This document shows, piece by piece, positions 1,109-55,203 of a DNA stretch of 64,000 bases; the stretch's first letter is position 1, and every line of letters begins with the position of its first letter. The DNA is from Ruditapes philippinarum (Eukaryota), in the NCBI RefSeq assembly GCF_026571515.1, contig NW_026851538.1, positions 86,164 to 150,163 of the forward strand. The letters are read 5' to 3'. Below the pieces are notes generated by a model. That model did not search any database. It was not told the origin of the DNA and saw only the letters and a program-made list of their open reading frames with translations. A program made the position numbers and the translations under genes.

Positions 1109-1180
<72 letters not shown>

Positions 1181-1195: not shown

Positions 1196-1214
1196 TACCT
1201 TATGACTTTTACAG

Positions 1215-7741: not shown

Positions 7742-8197
7742 TCACTTCCATTCTGAGGTGTTGAGGAAGTGAATTCCATAGTTTAGGTGCATTGGAACGA
7801 AAAGAGTTGCTGCCATAACTGGTGGTGTTCTTACCTGAGGGATAATGGCTACATTTTTTATACCTAAATTAAAAGAATGAGATTTTATATTAACAAGATC
7901 ATGTAAGTATGTTGGTCCTTGTTTATGAATAATTTTATGACTTTCGAGGGCTATAGTTCTGATTCGTCTTAATTTTAAATTTGGTACTTTAGATTTTATT
8001 AAAAGTGAGTCATAGTCTGATTGATAGTCATCATAAATGAATCTTAATGCTCTTTCTTGAATTTTCTCTAGTTTTTTTGTGTACTTTTCTCCACAGAAGT
8101 GCCAGGTGACAGGGCAGTAATTAAAGTTTGATAGTATAAAAGAGTATATGTTCAATTTCCCCAATTTACATAAATATTTACCTAATCTCTTTAGCAC
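7742..8197 (-). mobile_element. Non-LTR retrotransposon (LINE) fragment, 3'-terminal part of the RT ORF
   Basis: ORF 7742-8197 (-) contains the conserved post-RT tail of CR1/L2/RTE-type LINEs: NYCPVTW...LEKIQERALRFIY...SYDSLL..SKVPNLKLRRIRTIALESHKIIH. It is 5'-truncated, with no recognisable upstream RT. Confidence 0.6.
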
Positions 8198-9821: not shown

Positions 9822-10047
9822 ATGGCTAGTAACGATGTGAATTGTGTGTTCAAGTCCGACTCTCTCAAGAAGATGGTCTACCCTCGTGTGTTCTCCAGCC
9901 CTGTTGTACATGAGAATAACATTTATGTAGTTGGTGGGTGTGATCAGATGGGTCAGCCTGTCGACAGCTTTGAAATGTACGACATCACAAAGAAAAAATG
10001 GACCACTTTACAAAATATGCCAACAAAGAGGGCAGCACCTGCTGTTG
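9822..10047 (+). CDS. KLHDC8-like kelch-repeat protein, exon 1 (blade 1); MASNDVNCVFKSDSLKKMVYPRVFSSPVVHENNIYVVGGCDQMGQPVDSFEMYDITKKKWTTLQNMPTKRAAPAV
   Basis: ATG at 9822 immediately after a cag acceptor, so an upstream noncoding exon is possible. Pattern W.F..MP..RVY...GGC..G.P.D..E.YD....W..L..MPT.RA.PAV matches the KLHDC8A/B N-terminus. Donor G|gtaggt, phase 1. Confidence 0.75.
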
Positions 10048-11015
10048 GTAGGTGTTTATTGTAAACAATCATGGCATATAAAATGATAATAACCTAAAGC
10101 TAAAATTTAGAAAATAAACAGGTAAGTTATTTAAATTCTTCCTGTTGAAGATTTTGTTTTGACTGTCCTAGTAGTATGGACTGAAATTACAAAATACAAG
10201 GTCTTTTTTTATCGAAAACTGCTGGTTCATCTTCATAGTACTAAAAGAAGGAGTTGCAACCATTTTGTAAGAAATTAACTTACTACATGTAAGAAATATG
10301 AATTTTTCTTTATTCATACCTTGTGAAGTAATTTGTAGGCTATATTTGAGTATTGGTAATACATTGTACACCCAGGGCCTTTTCTCCTACAATAGAAGAG
10401 GATACATAAGGTAAGATTCCCTTTAACAAAATTTCTTTCCCTCTAAATTTTCTTCTCTGCTAAGTAATATTCCCCTCTTTATGGGTCCTGCATCCATCTT
10501 CTAGTAAACAAAAAATCGCTGAATGTTTATCTATAGCTACCACTGGAACACTATTTAGGCAGCTCACTCCAGAAAACACTATGTAACTTCATGCTACTTT
10601 AGGATAATGGTATGGATACAGACATAGACATAGAGCCATGGTTTTTGCGAATAGGGACAGTTATTGTTTTTGTGTCATATGTTGAAACTTCACACTCTTG
10701 TTCTCTGTGATTATCTAACATAATAGGCACATGTCGCATAACTCTGTGTTACCTTTTTACTGTTATATATCCCTTTTCTTACTGTCAAGCACTGTGAATA
10801 ATTGAGCGTACAGTCTTATGGACAGCTCCTGTAAAGTTGCTATCGTTATTAACAACTTGTGAAATTAAAGTGGTAGTGGTTTGGAATCAAACTTCCGTTA
10901 CCACTGACTTTTTAGTTAAATACTGTTACATGTACCTCGAGACCTTTGGGCTTCTTTAATACTTAACAGAAGTAAAGCAACACCTAAGATATTTATAGAA
11001 TGTAATGTATTTCAG

Positions 11016-11168
11016 GGGTGGTTGGAGACAAGATAGTGGCTGTGGGAGGTGTTGGAGATTGTCAGCAACCTGTAGATGCTATAGAAATGTACAGTATAAA
11101 AGATAAAAAGTGGGAGAAAATGGACAACCTTCCTAGTGGACTTCTAGGCCTTTCATCAGTCTTGAAAG
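11016..11168 (+). CDS. KLHDC8-like exon 2 (blade 2); G VVGDKIVAVGGVGDCQQPVDAIEMYSIKDKKWEKMDNLPSGLLGLSSVLK
   Basis: Acceptor tttcag|GG and donor AAAG|gtaaat, phase 1 in and out. Kelch GG doublet and W present. Confidence 0.75.
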
Positions 11169-11176
11169 GTAAATTT

Positions 11177-11411
11177 GAGCCGTGCCATGATAAAACCAAC
11201 GTAATGCGTTTGCAACCAGCATGGATCCAGACCAGCCTGTGCATCCGCGCAGTCTGATCAGGATCCATGCTGTTAGCTTACAAACCCTATTACAAGTAGA
11301 GAAACTGATAGCGAACAGCATGGATCCTGATCAGACTGCGTGGATGCGCAAACTGGTCTGGATCCATGCTGGTGGCAAACGTATTATGTTGGTTTTGTCG
11401 TGATGCGGCTC
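11177..11411 (-). mobile_element. Nested-palindrome MITE, copy 3
   Basis: Full-length copy in KLHDC8-like intron 2, starting 9 bp after the exon-2 donor. Flanking ATTT/ATTT. Confidence 0.85.
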
Positions 11412-11928
11412 ATTTTATTGATTTTCTTTCAATACATAGGATTTTTTTTTATAAAACTTTAAACAATTGTTTCTGTATTCATAAAATTAATTCTTACTTA
11501 GTGATGTTAACTCATTTTGTATGACTCTGCATTAAAAGTGTATAACTTTTTAATATAAAACCCTTGTGACACATACATGTAGAATGTCAGAACCCATAAT
11601 TTTACGGGTGAAATGGAATGTCAAGTTGTAATTGTAAATTTAAATAAAATACTGGCCTTACATAATAGTTAAAGGTTGTCTGTCTCATTGTAGGACAAGT
11701 TTGATTGTTCAATCTCTTATCCTCATGAATTGGTTGAAAAGATATACTCTGCTTTGAATTTAGCCTTGAAAAGCATAGAACCTGGTCAAACTGCATGGAT
11801 ATACAGGCTGGCCTTGGGCTATAATGGTGGCAAAAGCCTTTCCACTTTCTACATGTTCTTACCGATTAAGGGCTTAATTAATTATACCATGTAAAACATA
11901 TAATAAAGGTGAAATGCATTATTAACAG

Positions 11929-12093
11929 ATGACAAGGTTCTGGTAATGGGAGGTATGGGTGTTGACACAAATCCGAATGATAGTTTCATGATGATAGATC
12001 TGGATGAAAATAAATGGAAGGGACTAAAACCTATGCCTACTGCCAGATATGCTACATTCTCTTTCATCATCAATGACAAACTATATGTTATTG
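11929..12093 (+). CDS. KLHDC8-like exon 3 (blade 3); DDKVLVMGGMGVDTNPNDSFMMIDLDENKWKGLKPMPTARYATFSFIINDKLYVI
   Basis: Acceptor attaacag|AT and donor ATTG|gtaagt, phase 1. Confidence 0.75.
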
Positions 12094-13303
12094 GTAAGTT
12101 CCTTTGTGTTTTCTGCAAAGACCATCAAAACAAGAATGCTATTTCAATGTTGCAAACCAATTCATACCATATACAGCCTTGTTTTCATTTCCACATCAAA
12201 AAATTTTCACATTTATTTCACTATGAATACTCTGTATTTCACTTGAAAAATATAAAGTTAAATAAAATAAACATACACAAATTTTATCAATGTTTTCAAA
12301 ATTCATTATTTTCAAAATGTTCCCAGGAATGGTAGACTTAACAACAGTTTTTTTCAAACGACTTGAACAGCCTTTTAAGAACGTTCTATCGGAAACTCTT
12401 ATGCGAAAACAAATTTAACCACCAAACATATAGTCCAACTTTATTATTTTCTTGATGAGAATGGAAATCGATATCAATTCTTCGTGCATTGTAGCCTTTG
12501 AAACTCGAACCATGCATTTTTCTACAACAATGCACTCAGAGTTAATATCTATTTCCTAATTAAAGTGACATTATGCCCATTTAAGTTTAAATGGTGAGTG
12601 TACAGATGCAAGTCAAAATAACATTTTGCCATTATTGCTTTCAGTTTATAATTTACTCAAGGAATAATGATAAATATCGTTAGAATGTTTTAGTAACGTT
12701 CAGTTTATAAAAAGAGTTGGGAATTCTTTTAATATTTTATGCAGGTTTTTTATCCTGAACATTTATCATCGTTGATCAATCACTTTTAAAATTTGTAGCT
12801 GATAAAGCTCAAATTTTTGTGAAAGTGACATTATGTCCATCAAGTGATATATTGTGCGTAAACAGGTGAAAGTCAAAAAAGTTTACATTTTGTCATAATG
12901 CATTAATTTAACAATTCACTTTGCATGAACGATATACAACTTGCAATCCCCAAGGACATTTCTGTAAATATCTATTGAAATTTCAATTTATTAAAAGTGT
13001 GAGGCAATCTTTTTATATTTTAGGCAGATATGTATGTTATACTAAATATTTTCCAATATCAACTATTGGTCTATCGCCATTAAAATAATAAGTCCATCTT
13101 TTGAAATACAATGTATATAGTCAATTCAGCTCAACTTGACAATGAAAAAATGAGCATAATGCCATTTTAATAAAAAAACAGAGCATAAATTGTCCCTTGA
13201 ATTAAAAGGGTATCGTAGATCTCATGGTTGCATACTATTACATAAACATTGAAGATATAAATGTATTTAGATCAGTGAGATTTCTAGGATCTATTTATTT
13301 CAG

Positions 13304-13510
13304 GTGGAAGAGTGGGAAAATTACCTTGTCTCGCATTTGAGGTGTATGATTTTTCGGAGGATTCATGGTGTAAGTTACCTGACGTGCCGTCAAAACGTGT
13401 GTTTGCAATGTACGCGGCAACAGATAAGTACATCTTCAGCATCGGAGGTTTGATACAACCAGGAAAGAAAGGTTTCTCAAATGTTTGTGAAGTCTTTGAC
13501 CTGGAAAAGG
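13304..13510 (+). CDS. KLHDC8-like exon 4 (blade 4); GGRVGKLPCLAFEVYDFSEDSWCKLPDVPSKRVFAMYAATDKYIFSIGGLIQPGKKGFSNVCEVFDLEK
   Basis: Acceptor tttatttcag|GT and donor AAGG|gtaatt, phase 1. Confidence 0.75.
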
Positions 13511-14245
13511 GTAATTTAAAACGTTTTCTTCAAGATTTTGAATTTAAGGTGACATTGTGTCCAGCTTTGGGTGAAAGGAACTGTTGGTTGTTATTTTATT
13601 TGCTTGGGAATTAAGCAAGACTGACAATTTTATAGCCTGATGTTAGTTTCCGATTTTCTTGAGGAAATAGTCCAAAGGATGTTATCTGAACTTTAAAATT
13701 TTGGTAATTCTTAGATATATTTCAGACAAAGACCATGTAATTATTTAATTAATATAGTTACCTGCAGTGAAAATGTGAAACACAAAAATTCGAATATATA
13801 ATATTATATTTTGCGTTGTTTTTATGGTTCGGTTACAGAGGTTTGATATTTGATTACATGTTTGTTAACATAGTTTAACAGATTATGTTTTGAACGGAGA
13901 CCACTGAGGTTTTTTGATAAGACGCGACTGGAATTTTGTTTTTGTAAATTTGTGTTTCATTTTATGTAGATCAGGACCATTAACATTTGTGCAAATTTTC
14001 AGACCATTTAGAAACTCCCTTTCTGTAAAATAATCAATTTAGTTGTGCAGAGTGACCTGGAAATGAAAAGATTGTCGACGTTTTTACTAAACATAGGTTA
14101 AGAATTGCACAGTGGATCTCCTTAGTTAATTAATTATATTTTTTTTCTTAATTAAACAGAGATATTTTCATATATAATTTAATTTTTTTTTATTTCAACA
14201 GGGCAATTTTGATATTTAATACTAAGGTTGTTTTTTTTTTCACAG

Positions 14246-14338
14246 AGGAATGGAAGATTGGTAAAAACTTGAGCTCCCCTCGTGGCGACTTTGCTATCGG
14301 TGTAATAGAGGACAAGGTTATTTGTGCCGGAGGATTAG
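14246..14338 (+). CDS. KLHDC8-like exon 5 (blade 5); EEWKIGKNLSSPRGDFAIGVIEDKVICAGGL
   Basis: Acceptor t-run cacag|AG and donor TTAG|gtatgc, phase 1. Confidence 0.75.
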
Positions 14339-14639
14339 GTATGCTTATTGCCTTTCTTTAGTCTTTAAAAAAAAAAACCCAGAGTGTTTATTTGTCAAGT
14401 TAATTGAGCTTAAGAGTAAACTGACTCAAATAATTTGAATATCTTAGCTTAAGTTAAATCCTGGCTTGAATTATTTTCAATCTGTTAACTTTTATAGTTA
14501 ACAGATATTAAATTATATTTTAAGTAATTTATTTGAGTTCCCAATACATTGTGCTAGCTTAAATTATTTTATTAATTCATTTGAAAATATTTTAACTATT
14601 TGAAATACTTTCTAGATTTCCGAGTGTATAAAATGATGA

Positions 14640-14830
14640 AATTAGCTCAAGATACACAACTTTTGATGGATACATAACCTAAAGACAATATAAACTTAAG
14701 TTTTACAAGTTTTAATGTATATATAACCTAAAGTCAATATAAACTTAAGTTTTGCATGTTTTGATGAATATATAATCTAAAGTCAATATAAACTTAAGTT
14801 TTGCATGTTTTGATGTATGTATTACCTAGC
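14640..14830. repeat. ~57-bp tandem repeat x3 in KLHDC8-like intron 5
   Basis: ataacctaaag(a/t)caatataaacttaagttttgcatgttttgatg(t/a)atat repeated. Confidence 0.7.
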
Positions 14831-14855
14831 CAATATAACCTTATAACTGTTACAG

Positions 14856-15112
14856 GTAATGATGGAAAACCTTTTGACACAGTGGAAATTTATAATCCAG
14901 AGACGGACACGTGGTCATTTGGTAAAAACATGTCATTGTCACATTGTTCTTGCGCGTACATAACACACCACGGGAAATTATATGTGATCGGGGGTCTCTC
15001 AGCTCAAGGTCCAACAAACTGTGTGGAATGTATAAGTTATGGGCCTTTAGACGATGATAGCAAAAGCAGGAAGACACAACCTGCTCGGGGAAAAAATAAA
15101 AAGCAATCTTAG
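14856..15112 (+). CDS. KLHDC8-like exon 6 (blade 6 plus C-terminal tail); GNDGKPFDTVEIYNPETDTWSFGKNMSLSHCSCAYITHHGKLYVIGGLSAQGPTNCVECISYGPLDDDSKSRKTQPARGKNKKQS stop
   Basis: Acceptor ctgttacag|GT, phase 1. Stop TAG at 15110-15112. Total CDS ~1101 nt (~366 aa), comparable to vertebrate KLHDC8A/B (~350 aa). Confidence 0.75.
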
Positions 15113-18480: not shown

Positions 18481-19069
18481 TTACCTGATGATGTAAGATC
18501 TGATAATGTAAGAGTCAACCCTTCATTTGCACAATGGATTCGCAGTGCTTTGAAATTGGAACAGCCCTGGGAATTCAATCCCAAATTACAAAAAAGTGAG
18601 CTACCACCAGTATAGAGCCTGGTCAGACTGCATAGATGGCACAAATGGCCTGTCTCTGTACTGGTGGCAAAGGCTCATCATTTCTTTGTCTCTAGTAGGT
18701 TACGGGTTAAATACTCTTGTAAAAGTGTACATTTTTTTCACTGCTAAAATTTGACAAAATTATACTGGTGGTGTCACCCAAAAATGTTTTTGACCTTGTT
18801 GCTGAAAAATATTTGCTATTTTAAAGATTCTTTTTATCTGAGTGAGGGTAATTGTTTTTGTTGAAGAAAATATATATATATTTATTTATCACTTGTAAAC
18901 TGCTGCTATGTGTATGTTACTAAAATAATTATTGTGTTAGTTTAGTTATATTTTACCATTAATTTATATTATAAGAATAATAGCTGTTATATGATTCACT
19001 TATTTTCATTTGTATTGAATACTATGCACCATTTTTAGCTCGACTATTCGAAGAATATGAGAGCTATTG

Positions 19070-19125
19070 TAGTCGCCCCGGTGTCGGCGTCGGCGTCAGC
19101 GTCGGCGTCGGCGTCTGCGTTGGTT
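19070..19125. repeat. (GTCGGC)n microsatellite
   Basis: gtcggcgtcggcgtcagcgtcggcgtcggcgtctgcg. Confidence 0.85.
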
Positions 19126-19950
19126 AAAGTTTTTTGTAAAGTCAAATATCTCAATTATTACTTGAGATATTCAATTGAAACTTACAATACTTATTTATAG
19201 TAACAAGGTACATCAGATTGACAAGTTGGATAACTCTGCCTACAATATTGACAGAATTATGCCCCTTTTTAACTTAGAAATTTTGGTTAAAGTTTTTTGT
19301 AAAGTCAAATATCTCAACTATTGCTTGAGATATTCAATTGAAACTTACAATACTTATTTATAGTAACAAGGTACATCAGATTGACAAGTTGGATAACTCT
19401 GCCTACAATATTGACAGAATTATGCCCCTTTTTAACTTAGAAATTTTGGTTAAAGTTTTTTTATAAAGTCAAATATCTCAATTATTGCTTGAGATATTCA
19501 ATTGAAACTTACAATACTTTATTTATAGTAACAAGGTACATCAGATTGACAAGTTGGATAACTCTGCCTACAATATTGACAGAATTATGCCCCTTTTTAA
19601 CTTAGAAATTTTGGTTAAAGTTTTTTTGTAAAGTCAAATATCTCAATTATTGCTTGAGATATTCAATTGAAACTTACAATACTTATTTATAGTAACAAGG
19701 TACATCAGATTGACAAGTTGGATAACTCTGCCTACAATATTGACAGAATTATTGCCCCTTTGGAACTTAGAAATTTTGGTTAAAGTTTTTTTATAAAGTC
19801 AAATATCTCAATTATTGCTTGAGATATTCAATTGAAATTTAAAATACTTTTTTTATAGTAACAATGTACATCAGTTTGCAAAATTGCATAACTCTGTCTG
19901 CAAAATTTGCAGAATTATTTGCCCCTTTGAAAGTTAGAAATTTTGGTTAA
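19122..19950. repeat. ~163-bp tandem repeat x ~5
   Basis: The marker ggttaaagttttttgtaaagtcaaatatctcaa recurs at 19122, 19285, 19447, 19613, 19775. Confidence 0.85.
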
Positions 19951-20700
19951 AGGTTAAAGGTCTTCAAAGATATTTACTTGAAACTTTACACATGCACTTA
20001 GGGTCATAATTGGAGGGTCATAATTGTATGTCACTGACCAAGTTCCATAACTCTATCTTGCATTAAGGCTGATTCATATCCCCTTTTCTACTTAGTCTCT
20101 TGGTTAATGTTTACATGCAAGTTTTACATATCTCAATAACTATTAAAGATATTTATTTAAAACTTCACATATGCATTTAGGGTCATAATTGTAGGTCACT
20201 GACAAAGATCCATAATTCTATCTTGCATTTAGGCTGATTTTTCTCCCCTTTTTCAACTTAGAAATTCATGGTAAAGTTTTGCTTGTAAGCTGTTATCTCA
20301 ATAACTACTGAAGGGTTTGTGCCTTTTTTGGGACAATTTTATGCATTCATAATAATAAAGCAGTGATTTACTTGATAAAACATCTTAATAACAAGCCTTT
20401 GTACCTTTTCTGTCAAATTTATGTAGGGTCATAATTGTAGGTCACTGACAAAGATCCATAATTCTATCTTGCATTTAGGCTGATTTTTCTCCCCTTTTTC
20501 AACTTAGAAATTCATGGTAAAGTTTTGCTTGTAAGCTGTTATCTCAATAACTACTGAAGGGTTTGTGCCTTTTTTGGGACAATTTTATGCATTCATAATA
20601 ATAAAGCAGTGATTTACTTGATAAAACATCTTAATAACAAGCCTTTGTACCTTTTCTGTCAAATTTATGTATTCATAGGTAATTAGTATTATTATACTCA
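19950..20700. repeat. ~255-bp tandem repeat x ~2.7, related to the preceding array (shared ccccttttt-aacttagaaatt motif)
   Basis: 20175-20430 and 20435-20690 are near-identical. 19990-20170 is a diverged unit. Confidence 0.8.
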
Positions 20701-21083
20701 ATAAAACACCCTTGTGACATTACCTTCCGAATAGTCAAGCCAATACTGTATAATTGGCCTATAACATGAATTTATAAAAAAAATTGGCCCTTTAGTGAAC
20801 TTAAAAAATTTAACATCATGAAGGCTCTTTTACTATCAAGCACTTAGAATAGTCGAGCATGCTGTCCTACTGACAGCTCTTGTTATAAAAACAATAGTAA
20901 ATTTCTTAATTTTCTAAATTTTCTTGTTTTATTTTTTTCATATTAGGTAATAGTTTTCACTTAACTTCAATAAGTAATACACATTGTTTATTATTATTTT
21001 GTTTTATTATGTGGTTAATGCAAAATATGACTACAGTTTTTTTTATGTCTGTGAAAATAAAAGAACATACATATTCTTAATCA

Positions 21084-21289: not shown

Positions 21290-21790
21290 AGTTACTGTAT
21301 GACCTTTACATTGCAGATGTTGTGACCTTTACATAGCAGATGTCATGACCTTTACATTGCAGATTTCATGACCTTTACATTGTAGATGTCATGACCTTTA
21401 CTTTGTAGATGTCATGACCTTTACACTGTATATGTCATGACCTTTACTTTGTAGATGTCATGACCTTTACACTGTAGATGTCATGACCTTTACATTGCAG
21501 ATGTCGTGACCTTTACATTGTAGATGTCATGACCTTTCCATTGTAGATGTCATGACCTTTACATTGCAGATGTCATGACCTTTGTAACATAGCATATTTC
21601 ATAACCTTTACATTGTAGATGTCATGACCTTTACATTGCAGATGTCATGACCTTTGTAACCTAGCATATTTCTTAACCTTTACACTGTAGATGTCATGAC
21701 CTTTACACTGTGGATGTTGTGACCTTTGTAACATAGCATATTTCATAACCTTTACATTGCAGATGTCATGACCTTTACATTGCATACTTT
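21290..21790. repeat. 24-bp minisatellite x ~20 (gatgtcatgacctttacattgtag)
   Basis: Direct reading, with variant units (gcag/gtag, cactg/cattg). Confidence 0.9.
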
Positions 21791-22985
21791 AGTTAATATT
21801 TCAATGTGAGATTATTTGCATTTAATTTATTTGGTTTAAAAATCCTTTGTATCATAATTTCAAATCTTTAAATGCCTTAAGTCTCTATAAGTGGTAAAGA
21901 CTCAAACCCTCACCCATAACCACTCTCCCCCACATACCCTGCCCCTTTCACTTCCGATACAGCTCAAGCTCCGTCCACCAAAAATAAAAAGAAAAAAAAC
22001 ACGCAAGAGTTTAACACTTTCCTCAATTAGTAATCTTGGTTCTGGTCAGATTTCACGTATAAACAGGCAATAATGGCTGTGTTATGTCCCCCATGACCAG
22101 CCTTAATCCTGTTCATGCTTGAAATGTAAATTTTTTGAATCCCTTCATTAGTTATTGTTTATTTTCCACTTACATAATTTAAATTACAAAACGTTTGTCA
22201 TTCCATGTTTATGAAAACAATATCTCAGCAATAATCCATGTAAAAAAACTTACTAATTTTACTGTGCCATAGATTGTTATAATATTTTTTTTTTAGTTCA
22301 TCTAAGCACATGGTACTCAAGGTGAGCTATCAACCTGTGTTTGTCCTGCTGTATGTGTGTCAATAAGACATCAAAACATTTTCTTTAAAGGCCCATTATA
22401 CCACAGAAATGCTTTTATTTTTATTTCTCAAAGGTTGTTTATTTTTGGTGTAATTGAAAAGTTTCCAAAAAGTTACTCCCTGGCCAGTTACCTGAACCAT
22501 CATTTTTAGAAATGAGTACAGTTATACTATAGTGGTGTAGTATTTTGTATGGATGTCAAAAATCCTATTTTGTTTACATTTTGCTACTTTTATGACAAAT
22601 TGCTTCACATTCAATGCTACTTTCTTTGTGCAAGAAGCAAGTAACATTCTCTATAAGTATTACCTATATTTGCCCTTTCTAAAGAATGAAAAATATATTC
22701 ATTTTTGAGGGATCATGTGCCTTTAAACATATCTTCTTCTACACTGCATGCTAGACAAATATTTCCGAAACTCAGCCTGAATATTCCTGGCATGAAGCTT
22801 TTCAAGAAATTCCATTCTGTGTGAAACACCTGTTGCCATGGAAACTGGAAGAAAAAAACTTCACACCTTTGTTAAATTTACTGTCTTGGGGTGAAGATTA
22901 TTTTTCTTAAATTACTCCTTTTTAAAATTAAGACTTTCTACATGTTCTTGCATGCCATTTAATTTTGAATATTGGCCTATTTTTT

Positions 22986-24215
22986 AGCTCACCTGTCACA
23001 AAGTGACAGGGTGAGCTTTTGTGATCGCTTTTCGTCCGGCATCCGTCCGGCATCCGTCGGTCCGTCCGTAAACTTTTACTTTAAATGACATCTCCTCATA
23101 AACCACTAGGCCAATTTCATCCAAACTTCAGAGGAATGTTCCTTTGGTGGTCACCTTTAAAAAATGTTCAAAGAATTTAATTCCATGCAGAACTCTGGTT
23201 ACCATGGCAACCGAAAGAAAAAACTTTAAATATCTTCTTTTAAAAAACCCAAAGAGCTAGAGCTTAGATTTTTGGCATGAAACATCTTCTAGTGAGTGTC
23301 TACCAAGTTTGTTCAAATAAAAGCCCTGGGGTCAAAATTGGCCCCGCCCCAGGGGGTCATTGATTTTCCCTATATGCATATAGTAAAAACTTAAAAAATC
23401 TTCTTTTAAAGAACCTAAAGAGCTAGAGCTAAGATATTTAGAATGAAACATCTTCTAATGAGTGTCTACCAAGTTTGTTCAAATAAAAGCCCTGGGGTAT
23501 AAATTGGCCCCACCCCAGGGGGTCATTGATTTTCCCTATATGCATATAGTAAAAAATCTTCTTTTAAAGAACGCAAAGAGGTAGAGCTAAGATATTTAGC
23601 ATGAAACATGTTCTAATGGGTGTCTACAAAGTTTGTTCAAATAAAAGCCCTGGGGTCAAAATGGGCCCCGCCCCTGGGGGTCATTGATTTTCCTTATATG
23701 TGTATAGCAAAAACTTAAAAAATCTTCTATGAAAAAACCCAAATAGCTAGCGTTAAGATATTAAGCATGAAACATCTTCTAGTGAGTGTCTACAAAGTTT
23801 GTTCAAATAAAAGCCCTGGGGTCAAAATTGGCCCCGCTCTGGGGGTCATTGATTTTCCTTATATGTGTATGGCAAAAACTTAAAAATCTTCTTTGAAAAA
23901 ACCCAAATAGCTAGAATTTAGATATTAAGCATGAAACATCTTCTAGTAAGTATCTACAAAGTTTGCTCAAATAAAAGACCTGGGGTCAAAACTGGCCCCG
24001 CCCCAGAGGTGTCATTGTTTTTAATTATATGTGTATAGTAAAAACTTAAATAATCTTCTTTTAAAAAACCCAATGAGCTAGAGGTAAGATGTTTAACATG
24101 AAACATCTTCTTGTGGGTGTCTTCCAAGTTTGTTCAAATAAAAGCCCTTGGGTTAAAATTGGCCCTGCTGGGGGGGCCTTTATACAGGTGAGCGACCTTA
24201 GGGCCCTCTTGTTTA
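22986..24215 (+). mobile_element. Composite hairpin-headed element carrying a ~165-bp satellite array (Helentron-like), copy A
   Basis: Head agctcacctgtcacaaagtgacagggtgagct (perfect hairpin), then a (ccgtccg)n-like stretch and a ~200-bp unique part. Then 6 tandem units of ~160-165 bp (marker gtttgttcaaataaaagccctggggtcaaaattggccccgcccc at 23309, 23472, 23630, 23798, 23957, 24127). Tail caggtgagcgacc..gggccctcttg. Confidence 0.65.
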
Positions 24216-25234
24216 TTATGTTGGGAGCATTAAAATTTGGACCTTTTGAACAATATGACATGGCACTGAGTTTTGATAAAAGTTGACCTTGTGACCTCCA
24301 TTTTGCATTTTAATTTCTCCAAGAAAAAAACTGATGTATCAATTTGAGAACATTTTGATAATTAAAATAGGTAACAGGTACCATGTCAACAAAATGTATA
24401 TAATAAAATACTTAATTTACATTACAAAAATCAATGTTCAATGCATTCATGTGTTCCAAAAATATAAGTCAACCTATGAAAAATATGTTGTAAGTAAAAC
24501 ATAAAGTTACATTTTAACAAGTCAGAGACTAAAGTAAGTTTACAAAATTTCATGTCCTATAGATTTTAGAAAAAGAGTTGAAATATAAAATAAAGTTTAA
24601 CATGAGTTAAAATATAAAATAAAGTTTAACATACCTGTAGAAATACACATAGACAGAATAAGTCAAAATATATCCTTTATTGACAGTCCAAGAAATAAAT
24701 TATGACTGTCTAACCTTAAACTGTCTCTTTTATAGGTATGTTTTGGAATTGTTTGAAAAGTAAAATTAATTTATTAATGGGTTTTCACTTTGAAGTTATA
24801 AATGTCAAACACTACGAAGGAAACAAAGCTGTAATATTTTACACAACTATTATTCTGTATTGGTTTGTATTTACTCTATAAAAAACAGTCCATCTGTGAA
24901 ACAAAGAAAAGTGCTAAAAAGACCTACAGTGCTTCCTAGGCTTAAGCAAAATGTGTTAATTTAACAATATCTTAAGTATGTTTGACATGTAAAGAATGAT
25001 GGTTTCTATCCCAAAGTTTGAAGAAGTTATTACTGTTAAAATACATGGTATTTTAAGGTTTAAATTTGAAAATACAAACAAGTAAAATATAGATACAAAA
25101 ATGTACAAAATTATGCATTATGTAATATAAAAAAATAACTCATATTTGGGGTTCCTTATAATGTATTTAATTGTATTTAAAAGTAATTTATTGTGAAATT
25201 AACAAATAAAGCTATTTACATATTGCAAACGGAA

Positions 25235-25478
25235 CTTATAATCCAAGAAAATTACCAAAAAGTGGTCAACATATGCAAAGAGAGCCCTTACTGTGTTGGT
25301 AACGCTGTAGAAATATGGTGATAAAATACTGCAAAAGCAGTTGAACCACATATATGTATAACATTTTAAATATCACTTGGATCTTGAATGATTTTACTTT
25401 TCTAAAATTTTAGTACAATTTTCTCAATATTGTTTTTCTTGAAATATTTTGGCTCTCCTGCAGGCGTGCAGCTTTAAA
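25235..25478 (-). repeat. Dispersed ~360-bp repeat, partial copy 3 (inverted), abutting MITE copy 4
   Basis: Reverse complement of the first ~240 bp of copy 2 (...caatattgtttttcttgaaatattttggctctcctgcaggcgtgcagctttaa). Confidence 0.5.
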
Positions 25479-25479
25479 T

Positions 25480-25725
25480 GAGCCGTTTGCAACCAGCATG
25501 GATCCAGACCAGCCTGCGCATCCGCGCAGTCTGGATCAGGATCCATGCTGTTCGCTTACCGCGCAGTCTGATCAGGATCCATGCTGTTCGCTTACAAACC
25601 CTATAACAAGTAGAGAAACTGATAGCGAACAGCATGGATCCTGATCAGACTGCGCGGATGCGCAGGCTGGTCTGGATCAATGCTGGTCGCAAACCCATAA
25701 TGTTGGTTTTGTCCTGACACGGCTC
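25480..25725 (-). mobile_element. Nested-palindrome MITE, copy 4 (left TIR partly deleted, internal 40-bp duplication)
   Basis: Flanking AAAT/AAAT. Internal duplication cgcgcagtctg(g)atcaggatccatgctgttcgcttac x2. Abuts a copy of the ~360-bp dispersed repeat. Confidence 0.8.
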
Positions 25726-25789
25726 AAATAACTGTGGTAGTAAAGATGACAAAAGGTGGATTTGGTGCTAGGATTTGACTGTGTTAAAT

Positions 25790-26900
25790 ATAACTTTACA
25801 GTGAGTAAGGAACAGTTATAACATATAAGTAATTATATGGTATACAATGTTTCATACACATGAGAACTTTATGGGACAGACATTACAAACACATGATAAC
25901 TGTTGTGCACAGACCGTTTTGAGCACATATATACAAATGTAGTAACTTTTTGGTACAGAACATTTCAAACACATAGTTTCTGTGTTTGACAAAACATTTT
26001 GAACACATAGAAATTGTGTTGGAAAAAAGATTTAAAACAGATAGTTAAGTTAGTGTTTTGGACAAAACATTTTGAACACATAGTAACTGTGGGGAACAAA
26101 ACATTTTGAACACATGGTTACTGTGTGGAACAAAACATTTTGAACACATGTAATTGTGTGGAATAAAACATTTTGAATACATAGTTACTGTGTTGGACAA
26201 AACATTTAAACACAGCATTTTGAACACATAGTAACTTTGTGGAACAAAACATTTTGAAATCAAAGTAACTGTGTGGAAAAAATATTTTAAACACGAAGTA
26301 ACTTTGTTGGACAAAACACGTTTTGAACACATAATAACTGTGTGAAACAAAACAATTTGAACACATAATTATTGTGTGGAACAAAAATTTGAACACATAG
26401 TAACTTTGTGGACAAAACATTCTGAACACATAGTAATTATGTTGGACAACACATTTTGAACACATAGTAACTGTGTGGAACAGAACATTTTGAACACATA
26501 GTAACTTTGTTGGACAAAACACCTTTTGAACACTTAGTAACCTATTGGACAAACCATTTGAAACACCTAGTTACTGTACAGAACAAAACATTTTGAACAC
26601 ATAGTTACTGTGCAGAACAAAATATTTTGAACACATAGTGACTGTATGGGACAAAACATGTAGTTATGTTGGGGACACATTTTAAAGATATGTCTGATAC
26701 AGGACAGTGAAAACACATAGGAACTGTGTAGAATAGAATTCTTTGAACACAGACTAACTGTTTTGTAGAGATTTTTTGAACACATAGTGTATATGTAGTA
26801 TAGAACCTTTTGAACTCATAGTAACTGTATTGATAACCTTTTAAACTCACTTATAGTAACTATTAAAAGCAAATTGTTACTATGTGGTTCAGAACATATC
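25790..26900. repeat. ~36-bp minisatellite x ~30 (aacattttgaacacatagtaactgtgtggaacaa)
   Basis: Direct reading. It generates the artefactual Cys-rich ORFs 26045-26850 (-). Confidence 0.9.
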
Positions 26901-27079
26901 GAAGAGTCTTGAACACATAGAAACTGGTATAAAGTTTGCAGTTCATAAGCAAGAACGTTTTAAAGAAACGAAGAAAAAATGGTTGGTTGCTGTAAACACA
27001 AGCAGTAACTTTATTTTATTTTATATACATATATATCCTTTCCTTCCTTTAAATGCTCAAATATTATCTTCTTATTTTT

Positions 27080-28385
27080 AGCTCACCTGTCACAAAGTGA
27101 CATGGTGAGCTTTTGTGATCGCTTTTCGTCCGGCGTCCATCCGTCCGTAGACTTTTACTTTAAATGACATCTCCTCATAAACCACATAGCTAATTTCATC
27201 CAAACTTCACAGGAATGTTCTTTTGGTAGTCAACTTTAAAAATTGTTCAAAGAATTTAATTCCAAGCAGAACTCTGGTTGCCATGGCAACCGAAAGAAAA
27301 AACTTAAAATATCTTCTTTTAGAAAACTGCAAGAGCTAGAGCTAAAATATTTGGCATGAAACATCACCTAGTCATAGTCTACCAAGTTTGTTCAAATAAA
27401 TGCCCTGGGTTCAAAATTGGCCCCGCCCCAGGGGGTCATTGATTTTCCTTATTTGTATATAGGAAAAACTTAAAAAATCTTCTTCTAAAAATCCCCAAAT
27501 AGCTAGAGCTTAAATATTCAGCATGAAACATCTTCTAGTAGGTGTCTACCAAGTTTGTTCAAATAAATGCCCTGGGGTCAAAATTGGCCCCGCCCCAGGG
27601 GGTCATTGATTTTCCTTATTTGCATGAAGTAAAAACTTAAAATATTTTCTCTTAGAAAACCGCAAGAGCTAGAGGTTAAATATTTAGCATGAAACATCAA
27701 CTTTTCAGTGTCTACCAAGTTTGTTCAAATAAATGCCCTGGGGTCAAAATTGGTCCCGCCGGGGGGGGGGGGGGTCATTGGTTTTCCTTATTTTATATAT
27801 AGTAAAAACTTAAAAAATCTTCTTTTAAAAACCCCATATAGCTAGAGCTTAAATATTAAGCATGAAACATCTTTCAGTGGGTGTCTACCAAGTTTGTTCA
27901 AATAAATGCCCTGGGGTGAAAATTGGCCCAACCCTGGGGGGTCATTGATTTTCCTTATTTGCATATAGTAAAAACTTAAAATATTTTCTTTTAGAAAAAC
28001 GCAAGAGCTTAGATATTTGGCATGAAACATCACATAGTCAATGTCTACCAAGTTTGTTGAAATAAATGCCCTGGGATCAAAATTGACCCCACCCTGAGGC
28101 GTTATTTTCTAGTTAGCGTCTTCCAAGTTTGTTTAAATAAAAGCCCTGGGGTCAAAATTGGCCCCTCGAGTGGGGGTCATTGTTTTTTCCTATATGTGTG
28201 TAGTAAAAACTTTAAAAAAAATCTTCTTTTTAAAACCCCAAAGAGTTAGATATTTATCATGAAACATCTTCTAATCGCTGTCTACCAAGTTTGTTCAAAC
28301 AAAAGTCCCTGGTTTAAAATTGGCATTGGCTCAGGGGGCTATATACAGGTGAGCGATTTCAGGGCCATCATGACCCTCTTGTTTT
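27080..28385 (+). mobile_element. Composite hairpin-headed element with ~170-bp satellite array, copy B
   Basis: Same head (agctcacctgtcacaaagtgacatggtgagct) and same tail (caggtgagcgatttcagggccatcatgaccctcttg). About 7 tandem units, with a G14 run at ~27762. Confidence 0.65.
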
Positions 28386-29119
28386 TTATTCTTTGCTTGG
28401 TACTAAGTATTTGAAAAAAATATGTATTTTGATTAAAAATTGCCAAAACCAGAATAGTGTTTTTATTTTAAAAAAAAATGACTTAATTTGTGGCCAATGA
28501 GAATCAGTGCTTATGTTAATAATACAACATTGCAGGTCAGTGCTCCAATATTGAACCTATTGTTAAGACAGTTTATTGAACTGCAGGCGATTTACGTCAT
28601 TTAATCTGCAGACTAATGGTCGCATATTTGAGAAAAACGAGGCAGTCTATTAAGCGTCTGCAGATTTTTGTTTGTTTGTTTGTTTGTTTGGATTTTTACT
28701 GCACGTCAACACATACCTGGCCATATCGTGCCGAATGCTATAATTCGGCACAAAAAAAATCTGCAGACGCTAAAAAGACTGCCTAATTGCAGACGCTAGT
28801 CGTTTTTCTCGAGATATACGAAAGAGGTAAGACCATAAGTTTGGTTCTCTGACTACCGGAAGTACATCGGGCCAAGAACTTTTTAATCAATCCTCGTATG
28901 GTAAAAATACTACAGAATACACACGCTTGGTAGACTGAATAATTGCAGACGGATGTCGTCCTTCCATAGATATATATGCTAATAAGACTGACGAATTGCA
29001 GACGAATGTCGTCCCTGTATAGATATATATATATGCTAATAAGACTGACAAACTTTTTTCAGCCGATAAGACGCTAAACAATTATCCACGAGCTCTTGAA
29101 AATCGACCGGCATCTTGTC

Positions 29120-31753: not shown

Positions 31754-33089
31754 AACCAATATTATACACACTCAATACTTATAAGGCAACATCATTTTGG
31801 TTGTAGCTAAGAGATACCGCTCTAGAGATGTTACACGTATCTTGTACTCTTACCATTCAGCAGATTTTATAGTGCTGATAAAAAGGTGACCGCTGTGCGA
31901 AGGTTGCACTGTATTAAATTGAAAGTATTAACGAACAGAAAATTGCATATACATGTATGAAAGTTATCATACATCCGGTAAGAAAAGCTATTCATTTTCA
32001 GTAAAACAACAATTGTCCTTCATAAGTGTTTCGTATCATGTGCCTATGTTATCATTAAGCGAAACTTTTTTGCATTGTTTTCTTCCGCGTGTACACACTC
32101 AAACGGTTAATATTAATGTTGAAATCACTTGGACACTGTATTTCAAAAGTTATAGACATTGTACTTATATAGGTATGTTGTTTTTAGAAATTATATATTC
32201 ATATATTTATTTCGATTTTTGCTTAGCATATTATCAATACTGATTTCTTTTTATTGTAATTACTTTGCCTACGAATGGGTCCTGTTTGGGCCATTTGAAA
32301 TGTCGCCTTTGACATGCGATACTAGTATATACAGTTAATCTTTTGTGGTGACCTCGCGAGGATATAATTTTATTGTTGCGAGAATCCGCCTTTGACATGT
32401 GATACTTCGACTAGTAGTAAATCTCATTTGGTGACCTCGCGAGAGTATAATTTTATTGTATTGCGAGAATCTAAGTTAAACTTGCGAGAAATTAAACGTT
32501 TAGAATCGTAAGAATGTAACAAATAATTTAATTAAAAGGTCGACGTAAGAGATTTAGTCAAAATCGCGAATGTTGGTTTAAACATATTTATTTAAGCTCG
32601 ATTACGAAATAAGTTATTGCAACTTAATTTAATCACTTTCGAGTCTGCTTCCTGGAAACAACCAGTACTGGTGTCATATGAAGAAACATGGTCGTGACCC
32701 GATTAGGGTTCGAACCAATGATCTCTGGGTTGAGAGGTAGATACCTTAACCAATAGGCCACCGCTCCCCTTTGCGAATGTCAACAGGCGACATTTGAATG
32801 GCGTCAACTGGACACCGTATCTTTGTGACGTGAGTCTGCAATAAACGCAGGTTCCGTTTATCTTTTTAAAATGGCAAAGTTTTCGTAAAAACTATATTCA
32901 GTTGAACATAAAAAATTACTATCCATCACCTGTTTTCTATACATGTATATATTCTATAGTTATTCAGCACAGTAGATGACTTATATCAAACTAAATTGTA
33001 GAACAGATTTCGTGTTTGTATGGATATTTTGACAGTAGAATTCTTTTATCCTATTGCGGGACATGCCAAAATTAATAACAAAAATACAA

Positions 33090-33800
33090 ACTAACTTATC
33101 ATAAAATTTATATAATCTAGCTAACTATATAACATTCATACAATCTAGCTAATTATAACATTTATAATATCTAGCTAATAATATAACATTTATACAACCT
33201 AACTAATTATAACATTTATACAACCTAAATATTAATAACATTTATATAACTTAGTAGAATATCTACCTTCCTAGTCATAACATTTACACAACCTAATTAT
33301 TTAAAACATTTGTACAACCTAAATAACTATAACATTTATGCAACCCAACTAATTATATCATTAATGCAGGCTAGCTAATATAATAACATTTATACACCCT
33401 AACTTTTCATAACCTTTAAACAACCTAACTATTCATAACAGTTATACAATCTAACTAATTATTACATTTATACATCTTAATTTATCATAACATTTACACA
33501 ACCTAACTAGTATATCATGTTTAACAACCTAACTAATTATATAACATGTACACAATCTTTCTTATTATAAAAATTATACTATCTAGCGTAGTATAATATT
33601 TATACAAGCTAACTAGTTATACAGTATTACATTTATACAACCTAACGCTTTATAACATTTATACAACTCAACTAATTATAACATTTATGGAACCTAACTA
33701 ATTACATTGTATAACATTAAAATTTTATACAATCCATTTATACAATCTAATTAATTCTAACATTTATACAACCTAACTAATTATAACATTTATAAACGTG
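33090..33800. repeat. ~27-bp minisatellite x ~25 (aacatttatacaacctaactaattat), immediately upstream of the claudin-like A start
   Basis: Direct reading. The array ends ~50 bp before the ATG at 33851. Confidence 0.9.
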
Positions 33801-33850
33801 CTTTATTCTTATGACTGACCGAGTATATATATTTTTTAGACTGTTTGGAA

Positions 33851-34052
33851 ATGAACAAGTTTTTAGTTGCTGGTTTAGTGGTATGTGTACTTGCTACTAT
33901 TGTATGTATACTCAGTACTTCCATACCATACTGGCTATATGGACATTCCAAATCATATGGGATAGAAACGTCGGTAGCGTCTGGCCTCTGGCAGGTTTGT
34001 GTTAGAAGTAAAATCCAGAGTTCAACAGAAACATCGTGTTTCAAAAACAGTG
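33851..34052 (+). CDS. Claudin/PMP22-superfamily 4-TM protein, copy A, exon 1; MNKFLVAGLVVCVLATIVCILSTSIPYWLYGHSKSYGIETSVASGLWQVCVRSKIQSSTETSCFKNS
   Basis: ATG at 33851; the track ORF starts 6 nt earlier at an alternative TTG. TM1 followed by the claudin signature W...GLW..C...C. TATA-like tatatatattttt at ~33823. Donor G|gtgagt, phase 1. Confidence 0.7.
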
Positions 34053-34541
34053 GTGAGTTAAAGACACCGATCATCGTAATTTTTGACAATTGTATTGATA
34101 ATGACGGTTAGTTGTCTATAACCACATTAAACACTTTCAACAAATTATTTTTAAATTATTAAAATAAAAAATATATAAATTAAAAATCCAACAATGTATA
34201 ATCGCTCTGACGGCTGAAGTCAAAGCCTAAGTATCAACCAATAGTAGTTATGATGCAAAAATGTCCTTTAAAATGTTATTGAACACTTTTTTCAATGTAA
34301 CTAGATCTACGTCAAAAAGTTTGTTTCGGTTTTCCCTGCGAGCTGAACGGCTTTGTGCTATAACGGACGCCATCATAAACAATATTCATTTTACGAAATA
34401 ATTTTACCAATGGCTAATCAGTGCATGGAAATACTAAGTTTAGATTTAGAATGAACAAAACTAACACACCTGTATCATTTTCATAATAATTTATATATTA
34501 TTCATTATTATATAATAATTCATATACTATTTATCTCGTAG

Positions 34542-39179: not shown

Positions 39180-40189
39180 TATTTGGGGCGTTTATATCAC
39201 CACCGTTACTGCACTTAATAATACTTAAAAATAATGCATATTTTATTTGAGTAACAACTGTTCATATACATATATATTGAATATGATGAGTGTTAATCTA
39301 AATTATGTGAAAAAAATACATGTAGATATACGACATCACTATTGTGCTTGTGGTATTTTTGTTCTACCTATTCGGAATCTTTCGTGTTAGGTGGTTCCAG
39401 TATTCCACACTTGAATACTGTTGAATCACCCTTAGGATATGAGGCCTGCTTTTTAAATTTGTCTTTTGACGTAATATCTGTGATATGCAGGCTTCATAAC
39501 CTCAGATCCCCTTTCAAAATTCCATTTTATTTAGTTCCGCCCATTGTTTTCTCGTTTAGGGCACACGCTTTTTTTTACTTGGGGACCATATGCCGCTTTT
39601 CATGGAATGGCACTAACGTGTGACATTGAAGGTTCCATGATAACCGCCATATGAACACATCTACGGATGTTTCAAAATTCTAAATTTTACCAGTTCATGT
39701 TAAATTCAGCTTCAGCCGGTGCTGGCGGGCGTGGACGGTAGTTTGCAATTGACAGCACCGTCCATGAACAGGCTCAATCAAACCGAGCCTGCAACATTTT
39801 CAATTTTGCCGTGCTGGGCTTTCTTTAGGGATTCTTATTTCACTCTATTGTATATTTCAACGATATAACATGGATTAAAGTATCTATATATAAATGTAAT
39901 ATGCATTTTGCTGATAAACCTTAAATAAGGGTGGCTGATTTGTGACATGTATTTTTGTTTCGCGGGGCCCCAGTCAAAAACACGAGATTAATTATTGTGG
40001 CTGATTTGTGCTATGTTGTACTTTCGCTCTGCAGGGCGCCAAGCGAAAAATTATATGCAGCCACCATAACACCTTAATGTATCCTTTTTCATATTATTAG
40101 CCGGTGAATGAATTATAAATCAAATGAAAAGTTTGTGCAGATTGATTGCATCAATTAAAACTCCAAGGACTTTGAAAACATGGAAAGAT

Positions 40190-40625
40190 TTTTATTGGAC
40201 AAAATGTAATTTCAACCACTAAGTAATGATAAAATAGAAACCGTTTACTATTTAGCAGAACCAACAAAAAGATTTATACTATTTAATAAAGAATACGACA
40301 ATAAATAAATGCTTTTTTCATTAAAGGCACATTATTCCTAAAAATAACATTTTGCTTTTTAGGAAACGGCAAATATGAGTTTTATAATGTTAATAAAATG
40401 TACGATTTTTATTGGACAAAATGTAATTTCAACCACTAAGTAATGTTAAAATAGAAACTGTTTACTATTTAGCAGAATCAACAAAAAGATTTATACTATT
40501 TAATAAAGAATACGACAATAAATAAATTCTTTTTTCATTAAAGGCACATTATACCTAAAAATAATATTTTGCTTCTTAAGAAAGAGCAGACATGAGTTTT
40601 ATAATGATAATAAAATGTAAGATGC
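40190..40625. repeat. ~217-bp direct repeat x2
   Basis: tttttattggacaaaatgtaatttcaaccactaagtaatg... recurs at 40189 and 40406. Confidence 0.8.
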
Positions 40626-40761
40626 TTATTACCTGACGAAAGTAGTGATCATGAGTGATGAATGTGAACTTATTTGTCATCAATGTAGCAATATGTAAAA
40701 AATAAATTATTATGGCTTCCATTCACTATAATTTTACTAACTACGGAATTCCATTAACGAC

Positions 40762-54185: not shown

Positions 54186-55203
54186 CAATAGAGCCGTGAT
54201 GGCCTTAAAAATCGCTCACCTGAACTCTCCATGACAACGTACAAGTAATATTGTAAACTATAAAAAAGCAGATATAAAATTTAACTCTTAAACTGATATC
54301 TCAAAGTTAATATTTGTATCTGAAAAAGTGCATGTTTATAAATATTTCTAGTTGCTACTGCTAAGAGAAACCCCAAGAGATGTGTACATATACCGGGGCG
54401 GGCCAATTTTTACCCCAGAGGTTTTAGTTGAATAAACTTGGGAGACACCCAATGGCCATTAGGAGATGTTTCATGCCAAATATCTAAGGTCTAGCTCTTT
54501 GGCTTTTTAAAAAGACATTTTAAAAAAGTGTTTAAAATATACATATAAGGAAAATCAATACCCCCTTGGGCAGGGCCAATTTTGATCCAAGGGCTTTTAT
54601 TTGAGTAAAGTTGGTAGACACCCATAAGAAGATTTTTTATGCTTAATATCTAACTCTAGCTCTTTGGGGTTTTTGCAAAAGATTTTTTTTTAAATTTTTT
54701 ACTATATACATATAACGAAAATAAATGATCAAAGGACTTTTATTTGAACAAACTTGGTAGCCACTCACTAGAATACGTTTCATGCTTTATATCTAAGCTT
54801 TAGCTATTTCGTTTTTTTTAAAAGAAGATTTTGAAAGTTTTTTACTAAATACATATAAGGAAAATCAATGACTCAAATTTTTGACCCAGGGTTCTATTTG
54901 AATAAACTTGGTAGATACCTATAAGAAGATGTTTCATGCCAAATATCTAAGCTCTCGCTCTTTGGCTTTTTTAAAGAATTTTTTTTTAAAGTTTTTTTCT
55001 CTCAGTTGCATGGCAACCAGAGTTCTGCTTTGAACATTTTTTAAAGTTTACCACCAACTGAACATCCGTGTGAAGTTGGATTAAACCGGCTAAGAGGTGT
55101 TTGAGCTGATATCGTTTAAAGTAAACGTTTATGGACTGACGGACGACCGCCGGACGGATTGTGATCACAAATGCTCATCTTGTCACTTTGTGACATGTGA
55201 GCT
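54186..55203 (-). mobile_element. Composite hairpin-headed element with satellite array, copy C (inverted)
   Basis: The reverse complement of the head lies at 55171-55203 (atgctcatcttgtcactttgtgacatgtgagct) and of the tail at 54186-54221. ~4 satellite units at 54390-54990. Followed by a (CA/GCA)n microsatellite at 55222-55305. Confidence 0.6.

Follow-up and report, generated by a model that had tools for sequence, protein, structure and literature searches.

What carried three short arrays of a 166-bp tandem repeat into the 64,000-nucleotide stretch of contig NW_026851538.1 analysed here (positions 86,164 to 150,163 of the forward strand; this whole stretch is called the window, and its first letter is position 1)? 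An earlier note, written from the letters alone, had proposed that each array lies within a hairpin-headed mobile element, a non-autonomous Helentron loaded with repeats of the BIV160/Cg170 type. HINEs are non-autonomous derivatives of Helentrons, the Helitron2-type rolling-circle DNA transposons. The module order of the three elements, here called copies A, B and C, fits the HINE definition, and their monomer is homologous to the oyster satellites CgiSat01a, CgiSat01b and CgiSat09, in agreement with that proposal. The copies are very probably three independent, old insertions of one HINE family that carries an array of a 166-bp monomer of the Cg170/HindIII/BIV160 superfamily as its cargo.

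Three copies of one modular element

A blastn search of the window with copy A matched copies A, B and C only. All three have the same module order: a 32-nt bulged hairpin, a microsatellite, a spacer of ~150 bp, the tandem array, a 3' subterminal inverted repeat (subTIR), a palindrome and the terminus. Their positions are as follows.

22986..24211, + strand: HINE copy A, 1226 bp, complete from its 5' subTIR through the CTCTTG terminus
27080..28381, + strand: HINE copy B, complete, 1302 bp, with a T-run (28382-28387) directly 3'
54186..55203, - strand: HINE copy C, the most diverged of the three, with terminus CTATTG and its end at 54186

Copy A is likewise set between T-runs, at 22980-22985 and 24212-24214. 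The 3' ends of A (24211) and B (28381) were set by comparison with relatives, in which the last letters are CTCTTG. Three copies are present and copy C ends at 54186, as first described, but the ends then given for A and B (24215 and 28385) include 4 flanking T's. Copy C, unlike A and B, holds an unrelated insert at 54394-54224, between the array and the 3' subTIR. None of the copies contains an open reading frame (ORF) of at least 80 aa, and they have no coding capacity.

The DNA flanking copy A shows no similarity to that flanking copy B across the 2.9-kb gap between the two, which are therefore separate insertions and not the outcome of a local duplication; a segmental duplication of copy A into copy B is ruled out by these unrelated flanks.

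The 5' and 3' ends of the elements

The left flank of each copy consists of the hairpin head, formed by the 5' subTIR and an adjoining complementary inverted repeat (IR), followed by a microsatellite and a spacer.

22986..23017, + strand: copy A 5' subTIR AGCTCACCTGTCAC and complementary IR, a 32-nt hairpin with a 1-nt bulge
27080..27111, + strand: copy B 5' subTIR and IR hairpin, one substitution relative to A
55203-55172, - strand: copy C head, a more diverged version of the 32-nt head
23033..23069, + strand: copy A left-flank microsatellite (CGTCCGG/GTCC)n
27127..27148, + strand: copy B left-flank microsatellite, shorter than that of copy A
~55157-55133, - strand: copy C microsatellite
23070..23218, + strand: copy A spacer from microsatellite to array, conserved in B and C

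The head of copy A is AGCTCACCTGTCACAAAGTGACAGGGTGAGCT (32 nt, 22986-23017). From the insertion site inward, a T-run is followed by the head, made up of A+GCTCACCTGT(CAC), the loop AAA and GTGACA-N-GGTGAGC(T), after which TTTGTGATC stands ahead of the microsatellite. Folded as single-stranded DNA, the head pairs into a stem of 14 bp around a 3-nt loop and leaves a single base bulged out, which is G in copy A and T in copy B; the fold energies are -12.9 kcal/mol in A (z -5.3), -12.9 in B (z -6.1) and -8.5 kcal/mol in C. The head had been described as a perfect hairpin of 31 bp, which does not hold: the quoted 31-mer has 0 matches at up to 3 mismatches and is one base short of the real head, which is 32 nt long and bulged. 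Between A and B the identity of the left flanks is 88.5%, and their spacer of ~150 bp has no detectable relation to the 166-bp monomer (z below 3).

The right flank is shorter and of a different composition, with the order TATA-CAGGTGAGCGA, 3-5 nt, a short palindrome of the AGGGCC..GGCCCT type, CTCTTG and a T-run.

24184..24211, + strand: copy A right flank, with 3' subTIR ACAGGTGAGCGA at 24184-24195, the palindrome remnant AGGGCCCT at 24200-24207, and CTCTTG
28345..28381, + strand: copy B right flank, with 3' subTIR ACAGGTGAGCGA, the imperfect palindrome AGGGCCATCATGACCCT at 28361-28377, and CTCTTG
54223-54212, - strand: copy C 3' subTIR

The shared tail motif was already recognised in the earlier note, and with up to 1 mismatch allowed ACAGGTGAGCGA is indeed present 5 times, where 0.06 occurrences would be expected. 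In A and B the 5' motif GCTCACCTGT complements the 3' motif ACAGGTGAGC exactly over 10 nt, and the same GCTCACCTGT/ACAGGTGAGC motif also builds the 5' hairpin. Extended as (A)GCTCACCTGT and ACAGGTGAGC(GA), the subTIRs pair over 11-12 nt with 1-2 mismatches, copy C having 1-2 mismatches more; among the HINE families of Crassostrea gigas (Cg_HINEs) one mismatch between the subTIRs is the predominant state (PMC7492417). The 3' palindrome is damaged in every copy: its loop was lost by a 9-bp deletion in A, one stem mismatch is found in B and several are found in C. Intact stems of 6-7 bp are present in three of the related elements described below (loci L007, L009 and L017), directly before the CTTG of CTCTTG, with energies of -5.9 to -8.7 kcal/mol (z -2.4 to -3.3).

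Element boundaries and relatives in public contigs

Scans with a 22-nt head pattern recovered 15 contigs among the JGI metagenome contigs and 1 among the GTDB genomes, a total of 16 loci, while the head pattern had no match in the viral_contigs collection. Each of the 16 loci has unrelated DNA upstream, with TTT(T)A as its last letters, and carries a GTCC/GTGC microsatellite 3' of the hairpin; a tract of the (CGTC/GTCC)n type holds this place in A, B and C as well as in 16/16 related loci. Seventeen heads have enough upstream sequence for the junction to be aligned, namely those of copies A, B and C and of loci L002-L006 and L008-L016. In this alignment the commonest base has a share of ~0.4 in the upstream DNA, which jumps to 1.0 at position -5, counted back from the G of GCTCACC. 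The 5' IR hairpin is kept in 17/17 heads, and TTT(T) precedes the junction in 17/17.

The tail was found in eight elements, which are copies A, B and C and five of the 16 related contigs (L002, L007, L009, L012 and L017). All eight tails end in CTCTTG (CTATTG in copy C), followed by TT or TTT, so that the boundary pattern can be written T / AGCTCACC...CTCTTG / T, where the slashes mark the ends of the element. No flanking direct repeat besides the T-runs was found in the eight complete elements. The earlier expectation that head and tail recur as element boundaries is borne out by the shared junctions of these 17 heads and 8 tails.

What lies between the ends differs from element to element. 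Two relatives (L002 and L009) have no array and are elements of ~230 bp, two carry a 145-bp repeat (7 units in L007 and 13 units in L017), and one (L015) carries a 157-bp repeat. Neither the 145-bp and 157-bp cargo repeats nor another repeat of the window, with a period of 165 bp, is detectably related to the 166-bp monomer (z below 3). Sharp ends that recur around different cargo, or around none, show that head and tail are the ends of a mobile unit and not the neighbours of a satellite.

These boundaries bear directly on the suggestion that the copies are fragments of a satellite array that was spread by segmental duplication or recombination, with head and tail as co-duplicated neighbours. 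The monomer's family does form classical arrays in oysters, and copies A and B are only 2.9 kb apart, both points in its favour. However, similarity breaks off sharply at identical positions in every copy, the DNA around each of the three is unrelated to that around the others, and the same ends bound other cargo or no cargo in other contigs (the head in 16, the tail in 5). This explanation is largely refuted by the boundary analysis already and is regarded as highly improbable.

The copies are also short, non-coding and dispersed, properties that would suit a short interspersed nuclear element (SINE) or another retrotransposed non-coding element with internal repeats. Against such an origin, no head resembling tRNA, 5S or 7SL RNA is present (ARAGORN 0, Rfam 0), the 3' end is CTCTTG without a poly(A) or simple-repeat tail, no target-site duplication is seen, and terminal hairpins and subTIRs are foreign to SINEs. 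A retrotransposed origin of this kind is scarcely credible, and the HINE assignment is retained.

The alignment of heads revealed a further regularity. The 5' hairpin of all 17 heads has one unpaired base on its 3' arm, always at the same position, and this base varies, being A in most relatives in place of the G of copy A and the T of copy B. A bulge that is fixed in position and variable in base suggests, from sequence comparison, a structural requirement for recognition.

One of the relatives deserves separate mention. Locus L017 is CBDHEM010000068.1, filed in GTDB under "MAG: Leptonemataceae bacterium" (a metagenome-assembled genome, MAG), and it contains a complete eukaryotic HINE at 1-3630, with head, (GTCC)n, 13.3 units of the 145-bp repeat and a tail whose 7-bp hairpin is perfect. 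Almost certainly, the contig comes from the mollusc host and contaminates a bacterial MAG.

The 22-nt head GCTCACCTGTCACAAAGTGACA is identical across lineages that carry unrelated cargo, in at least five metagenome projects and one MAG. One conceivable, though rather unlikely, explanation is a single mollusc Helentron lineage, either long-lived or horizontally spreading, whose termini are held under strong purifying selection by its transposase and which time and again swaps or captures tandem-repeat cargo. If this were true, the Helentron lineage would be a general "satellite cassette carrier" and more than the vehicle of one satellite.

The 166-bp array and its monomer

Each of the window copies holds one array of the 166-bp monomer.

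23219..24168, + strand: copy A array, 5.8 units of the 166-bp monomer
27298..28338, + strand: copy B array, ~6.4 units, with a deletion junction at 28095-28103
54996-54395, - strand: copy C array, ~4 degraded units

Tandem Repeats Finder detected 5.8 copies at 23219-24165 and 4.8 copies at 27298-28094, both with a period of 166-167 bp, together with a degraded array in copy C at 54583-54877, and the consensus monomer is 166 bp long. Searched by blast with the monomer, copy A has 5 full units and 1 partial unit, copy B has 4 full and 3 partial units, and copy C has ~4 damaged units, from two of which the GC-rich part is missing. The earlier estimate of 4-7 units of ~160-170 bp agrees with these counts, and the 44-nt monomer marker quoted with it has 7 occurrences at up to 3 mismatches against 0 expected.

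Mean identity among monomers is 87% within A, 80% within B and 82% between A and B, and it falls to 73-77% between C and the others. The units of copy B follow a weak alternating (dimeric) pattern, in which B2 and B4 are 92% identical and B1, B3 and B5 are 84-87% identical, with neighbouring units at 81-87%. The arrays are oriented alike relative to the flanks in all three copies. Copies A and B also share their array junctions, both where the spacer passes into the first unit and where the last unit is truncated at the same phase, which indicates that the master element itself already contained the array. The monomer pattern had no match in the genome_contigs or viral_contigs collections, and in the full text of the literature no relevant paper was matched by k-mers of the head or the monomer.

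Kinship of the monomer with Cg170 and BIV160 satellites

The reference satellites were the C. gigas satellitome consensus sequences (PMC8268682, Data S1). In reverse complement and over the whole period, the 166-bp consensus aligns to CgiSat01a at 63.7% identity (z 26.5), to CgiSat01b at 63.9% (z 29.5) and to CgiSat09 at 64.0% (z 28.0), whereas the control CgiSat08, an unrelated satellite of like length, gave z -0.5; these z-scores, obtained from shuffles, are inflated about two-fold by the doubling of both sequences for alignment but are still decisive. A 13-nt block, AGTTTGTTCAAAT, is identical between the monomer and CgiSat01a, which is presumably the classical Cg170 satellite. BIV160 was compared through its published Donax primers, of which bivR matches the monomer at 13/13 nt (a score reached by 0/300 shuffles) and bivF at ~20/25 nt (reached by 1/300).

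From the full-period alignment to the CgiSat sequences and the matches to the BIV160 primers, the monomer is assigned by its sequence to the Cg170/HindIII/BIV160 superfamily, of which it is a divergent member. The similarity to known satellites that had been anticipated, found here at ~64% and z 26-30, supports the cargo part of the original proposal.

Classification as HINEs

In the DINE-1/HINE definition of Thomas 2014 (PMC4067079), an element has subTIRs of ~12-15 nt, an IR at a distance of 3-22 nt from the one at the 5' end, and a microsatellite; repeats in its centre are optional. It further has a 3' stem-loop and inserts at TT, and the number of its terminal T's varies. Vojvoda Zeljko 2020 (PMC7492417) described 11 Cg_HINE families in C. 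gigas with these substructures, in which a variable stretch of 10-500 bp leads up to the array, the repeats keep one orientation, and insertion is into T-rich targets without a target-site duplication. The window copies have subTIRs, an IR after a 3-nt loop (the DINE-1/Cg_HINE type has it 1-22 nt downstream), a left-flank microsatellite and repeats in fixed orientation, and they are non-coding. They fit every structural feature of HINEs save two, the 3' stem-loop, which is eroded, and insertion without duplication, which is read from the flanks.

Several observations weigh against this assignment. The subTIRs are perfect over 10 nt, near the lower limit of the published range of 11-15 nt, and the 3' palindromes of A, B and C fold no better than shuffles. 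Insertion without target-site duplication is deduced from T-run flanks only. The identity of the monomer to Cg170 is just ~64%, a divergence of ~36% from the oyster consensus. With respect to an autonomous partner, inspection by eye of the 10 ORFs of at least 110 aa in the window revealed no obvious Rep/Hel candidate, and no Helentron with these termini was seen, again by eye, among ORFs of at least 150 aa in the 16 related contigs. A Pfam scan of six window ORFs of at least 80 aa likewise gave no Rep/Hel match.

A canonical Helitron (Helitron1), with 5' TC and 3' CTRR ends, insertion between A and T and no inverted repeats, was considered and rejected: the termini here are (T)nAGCTCACC...CTCTTG(T)n, with T on both sides and with subTIRs.

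The short inverted repeats near both ends might instead be those of a miniature inverted-repeat transposable element (MITE) of a cut-and-paste transposon, within which the tandem repeats are incidental. The elements pearl and DTC84, which resemble the window copies, were first classed in this way, DTC84 with a putative AA target-site duplication (PMC3879986), but pearl/DTC84-type elements have since been reassigned to Helentrons (PMC7492417, PMC4067079). The ends of the window copies are asymmetric, with a hairpin and microsatellite on one side and a subTIR, palindrome and CTCTTG on the other; the inverted repeats are subterminal and just ~10 nt long, and the eight complete elements have no flanking direct repeat except T-runs. 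A MITE origin is consequently considered very unlikely, and the copies are discussed below as HINEs.

Mechanism and age

By analogy with related elements, the Rep/helicase(-endonuclease) protein would be supplied by an autonomous Helentron elsewhere. This protein may recognise the 5' subTIR together with the bulged hairpin of the IR, the 3' subTIR, and the 3' stem-loop before CTCTTG. One strand would then be mobilised by rolling-circle replication and would enter a T-run (TT site) with no target-site duplication, and the array would ride along as a passenger. Later changes in the number of units inside the element are best accounted for by unequal exchange, slippage or deletion. Seen directly in the sequence are the modular structure, the sharp recurrent termini, the separate T-run insertions, the conserved array junctions and the variation in unit number.

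The divergence among the three copies is 12-27%. Together with the erosion of the 3' hairpins, this divergence indicates that the present copies are old and probably immobile relics. To the earlier note the window appeared to show the dispersal mechanism in action; past dispersal is recorded here, but "in action" overstates the case for copies that are 12-27% diverged and whose 3' hairpins are eroded.

A second HINE family in the window

A second HINE family, unrelated to the first, is represented at 19037-20882 on the + strand. Its 5' subTIR is GCTCGACTATTCGAAG, adjoined by a weak hairpin and a (CGGCGT)7 microsatellite at 19079-19120. Two arrays follow, one of 5.1 copies of a 165-bp unit with 95% identity (19120-19952) and one of 2.0 copies of a 246-bp unit with 100% identity (20178-20671). 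The 3' subTIR CTTAGAATAGTCGAGC (20843-20858) is 94% complementary to the 5' subTIR, and a 3' hairpin, GCTGTC-CTACT-GACAGC, precedes a terminus that is CTCTTG, as in A and B, and is followed by TT. Within the arrays of this element the units differ far less from one another than they do in A, B and C, so that it is probably younger. Its two-array layout resembles those of Cg_HINE_10_13 and Cg_HINE_11_12. The window thus contains at least four HINEs of two families within 36 kb.

Other features of the window

The remaining features recorded in the window are genes, a retrotransposon and other tandem arrays.

~9822-15112, + strand: KLHDC8-like kelch-repeat gene, four exon-like ORFs
33845-34108, + strand: PMP22/claudin-like exon
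43854-45642, + strand: non-LTR (long terminal repeat) retrotransposon reverse transcriptase (RT), two ORFs of 150 and 447 aa, Pfam RVT_1
56037-56765, - strand: fibrinogen-C-domain (FReD) gene, two exons
7742-8197, - strand: ORF that looks, by eye, like a C-terminal fragment of an RT; no Pfam match
25948-26828: array between copies A and B, 34 bp (68/103/137-bp higher-order)
4895-5420: tandem array, 32 bp x 16.5
21299-21784: tandem array, 23 bp/144 bp
33084-33794: tandem array, 26 bp x ~25
40185-40630: tandem array, 217 bp x 2.1

The stretch from the kelch gene to the claudin-like exon holds copies A and B, and copy C lies ~830 bp downstream of the last fibrinogen-domain exon. The best named homologues of the KLHDC8-like gene are in Mya arenaria (49%) and Potamilus streckersoni (46%); with homologues at no more than 49% identity, the protein collection holds no close annotated relative of the source species. 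The non-LTR RT has its best relative, at 95% identity, in a Logan contig (SRR29986439), shares ~50% identity with proteins of Mercenaria and Mytilus, and has no exact counterpart on record. Its matches include proteins of 'Candidatus Thiodiazotropha' MAGs, which look like host retrotransposons in host-contaminated MAGs of lucinid symbionts. These protein relatives mark the host as a mollusc, probably a bivalve.

Significance and comparison with known systems

The window copies add another mollusc case, probably a non-oyster one, of HINEs that scatter repeats of the Cg170/BIV160 type in euchromatin. They belong to an established picture, in which short HINE-borne arrays can grow, shrink or seed satellites. 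The arrangement of satellite-carrying HINEs is already well documented in bivalves, and current understanding is unchanged by this locus. For annotation, masking should treat the 166-bp arrays here as the cargo of a transposon (DNA/Helitron-2 or HINE) and not as satellite loci.

The DINE-1 elements and HINEs of Drosophila, mites and mosquitoes (PMC4067079) share with the window copies the subTIRs, the 5' IR, the microsatellite and the optional repeats; their 3' stem-loop and TT target have probable counterparts in the eroded palindromes and T-run flanks of the window copies, and their terminal T's are variable in number, as they are here. There is no sequence similarity, however, and the DINE-1 conserved core is absent here.

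Among bivalve elements, DTC84 of Donax trunculus (Satovic & Plohl 2013, PMC3879986) and pearl (CvA, CvG; Gaffney 2003) consist of a flank, 1-5 repeats of ~160 bp, (ACGG)n and a second flank, and their ends carry an inverted motif of 11 bp. Set beside the window copies by description, their architecture is that of the window elements on the opposite strand, with ACGG there and CCGT here. The core repeat of DTC84, 156 bp long with the palindrome TTGTCCGGACAA, differs from the window monomer, while CvA repeats are reported kin of BIV160/Cg170. With its 166 bp the window monomer falls within the unit length of the Cg170/HindIII/BIV160 family (~160-170 bp); this family forms classical arrays in oysters, whereas the window has short arrays only (4 to ~6.4 units), all inside transposons.

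The closest counterparts are the Cg_HINEs of C. gigas (PMC7492417). They differ from the window copies in species, in a monomer only ~64% identical to that of the window, and in that the 3' palindromes of the window copies are eroded. The order of modules is the same in both. In the Cg_HINEs an IR lies within a few nucleotides of the 5' subTIR, the left flanks contain GTCY/GTCC microsatellites, which the tract of copy A matches, and 2-29 satellite-like units of ~166 bp follow. Both orientations occur in the oyster genome, as they do in the window with A and B on the + strand and C on the - strand. Group 1 (Cg_HINE_1, _2 and _10_13) carries Cg170-type repeats and corresponds to Repbase Helitron-N2_CGi and its relatives (PMC7492417); repeats CL1, CL2, CL10 and CL13 were reversed for comparison with Cg170, and the window monomer is likewise in reverse orientation. 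Group 2 combines the flank type of group 1 with unrelated cargo (PMC7492417), the same combination of kindred ends and different interiors that is found in the contig relatives of the window copies.

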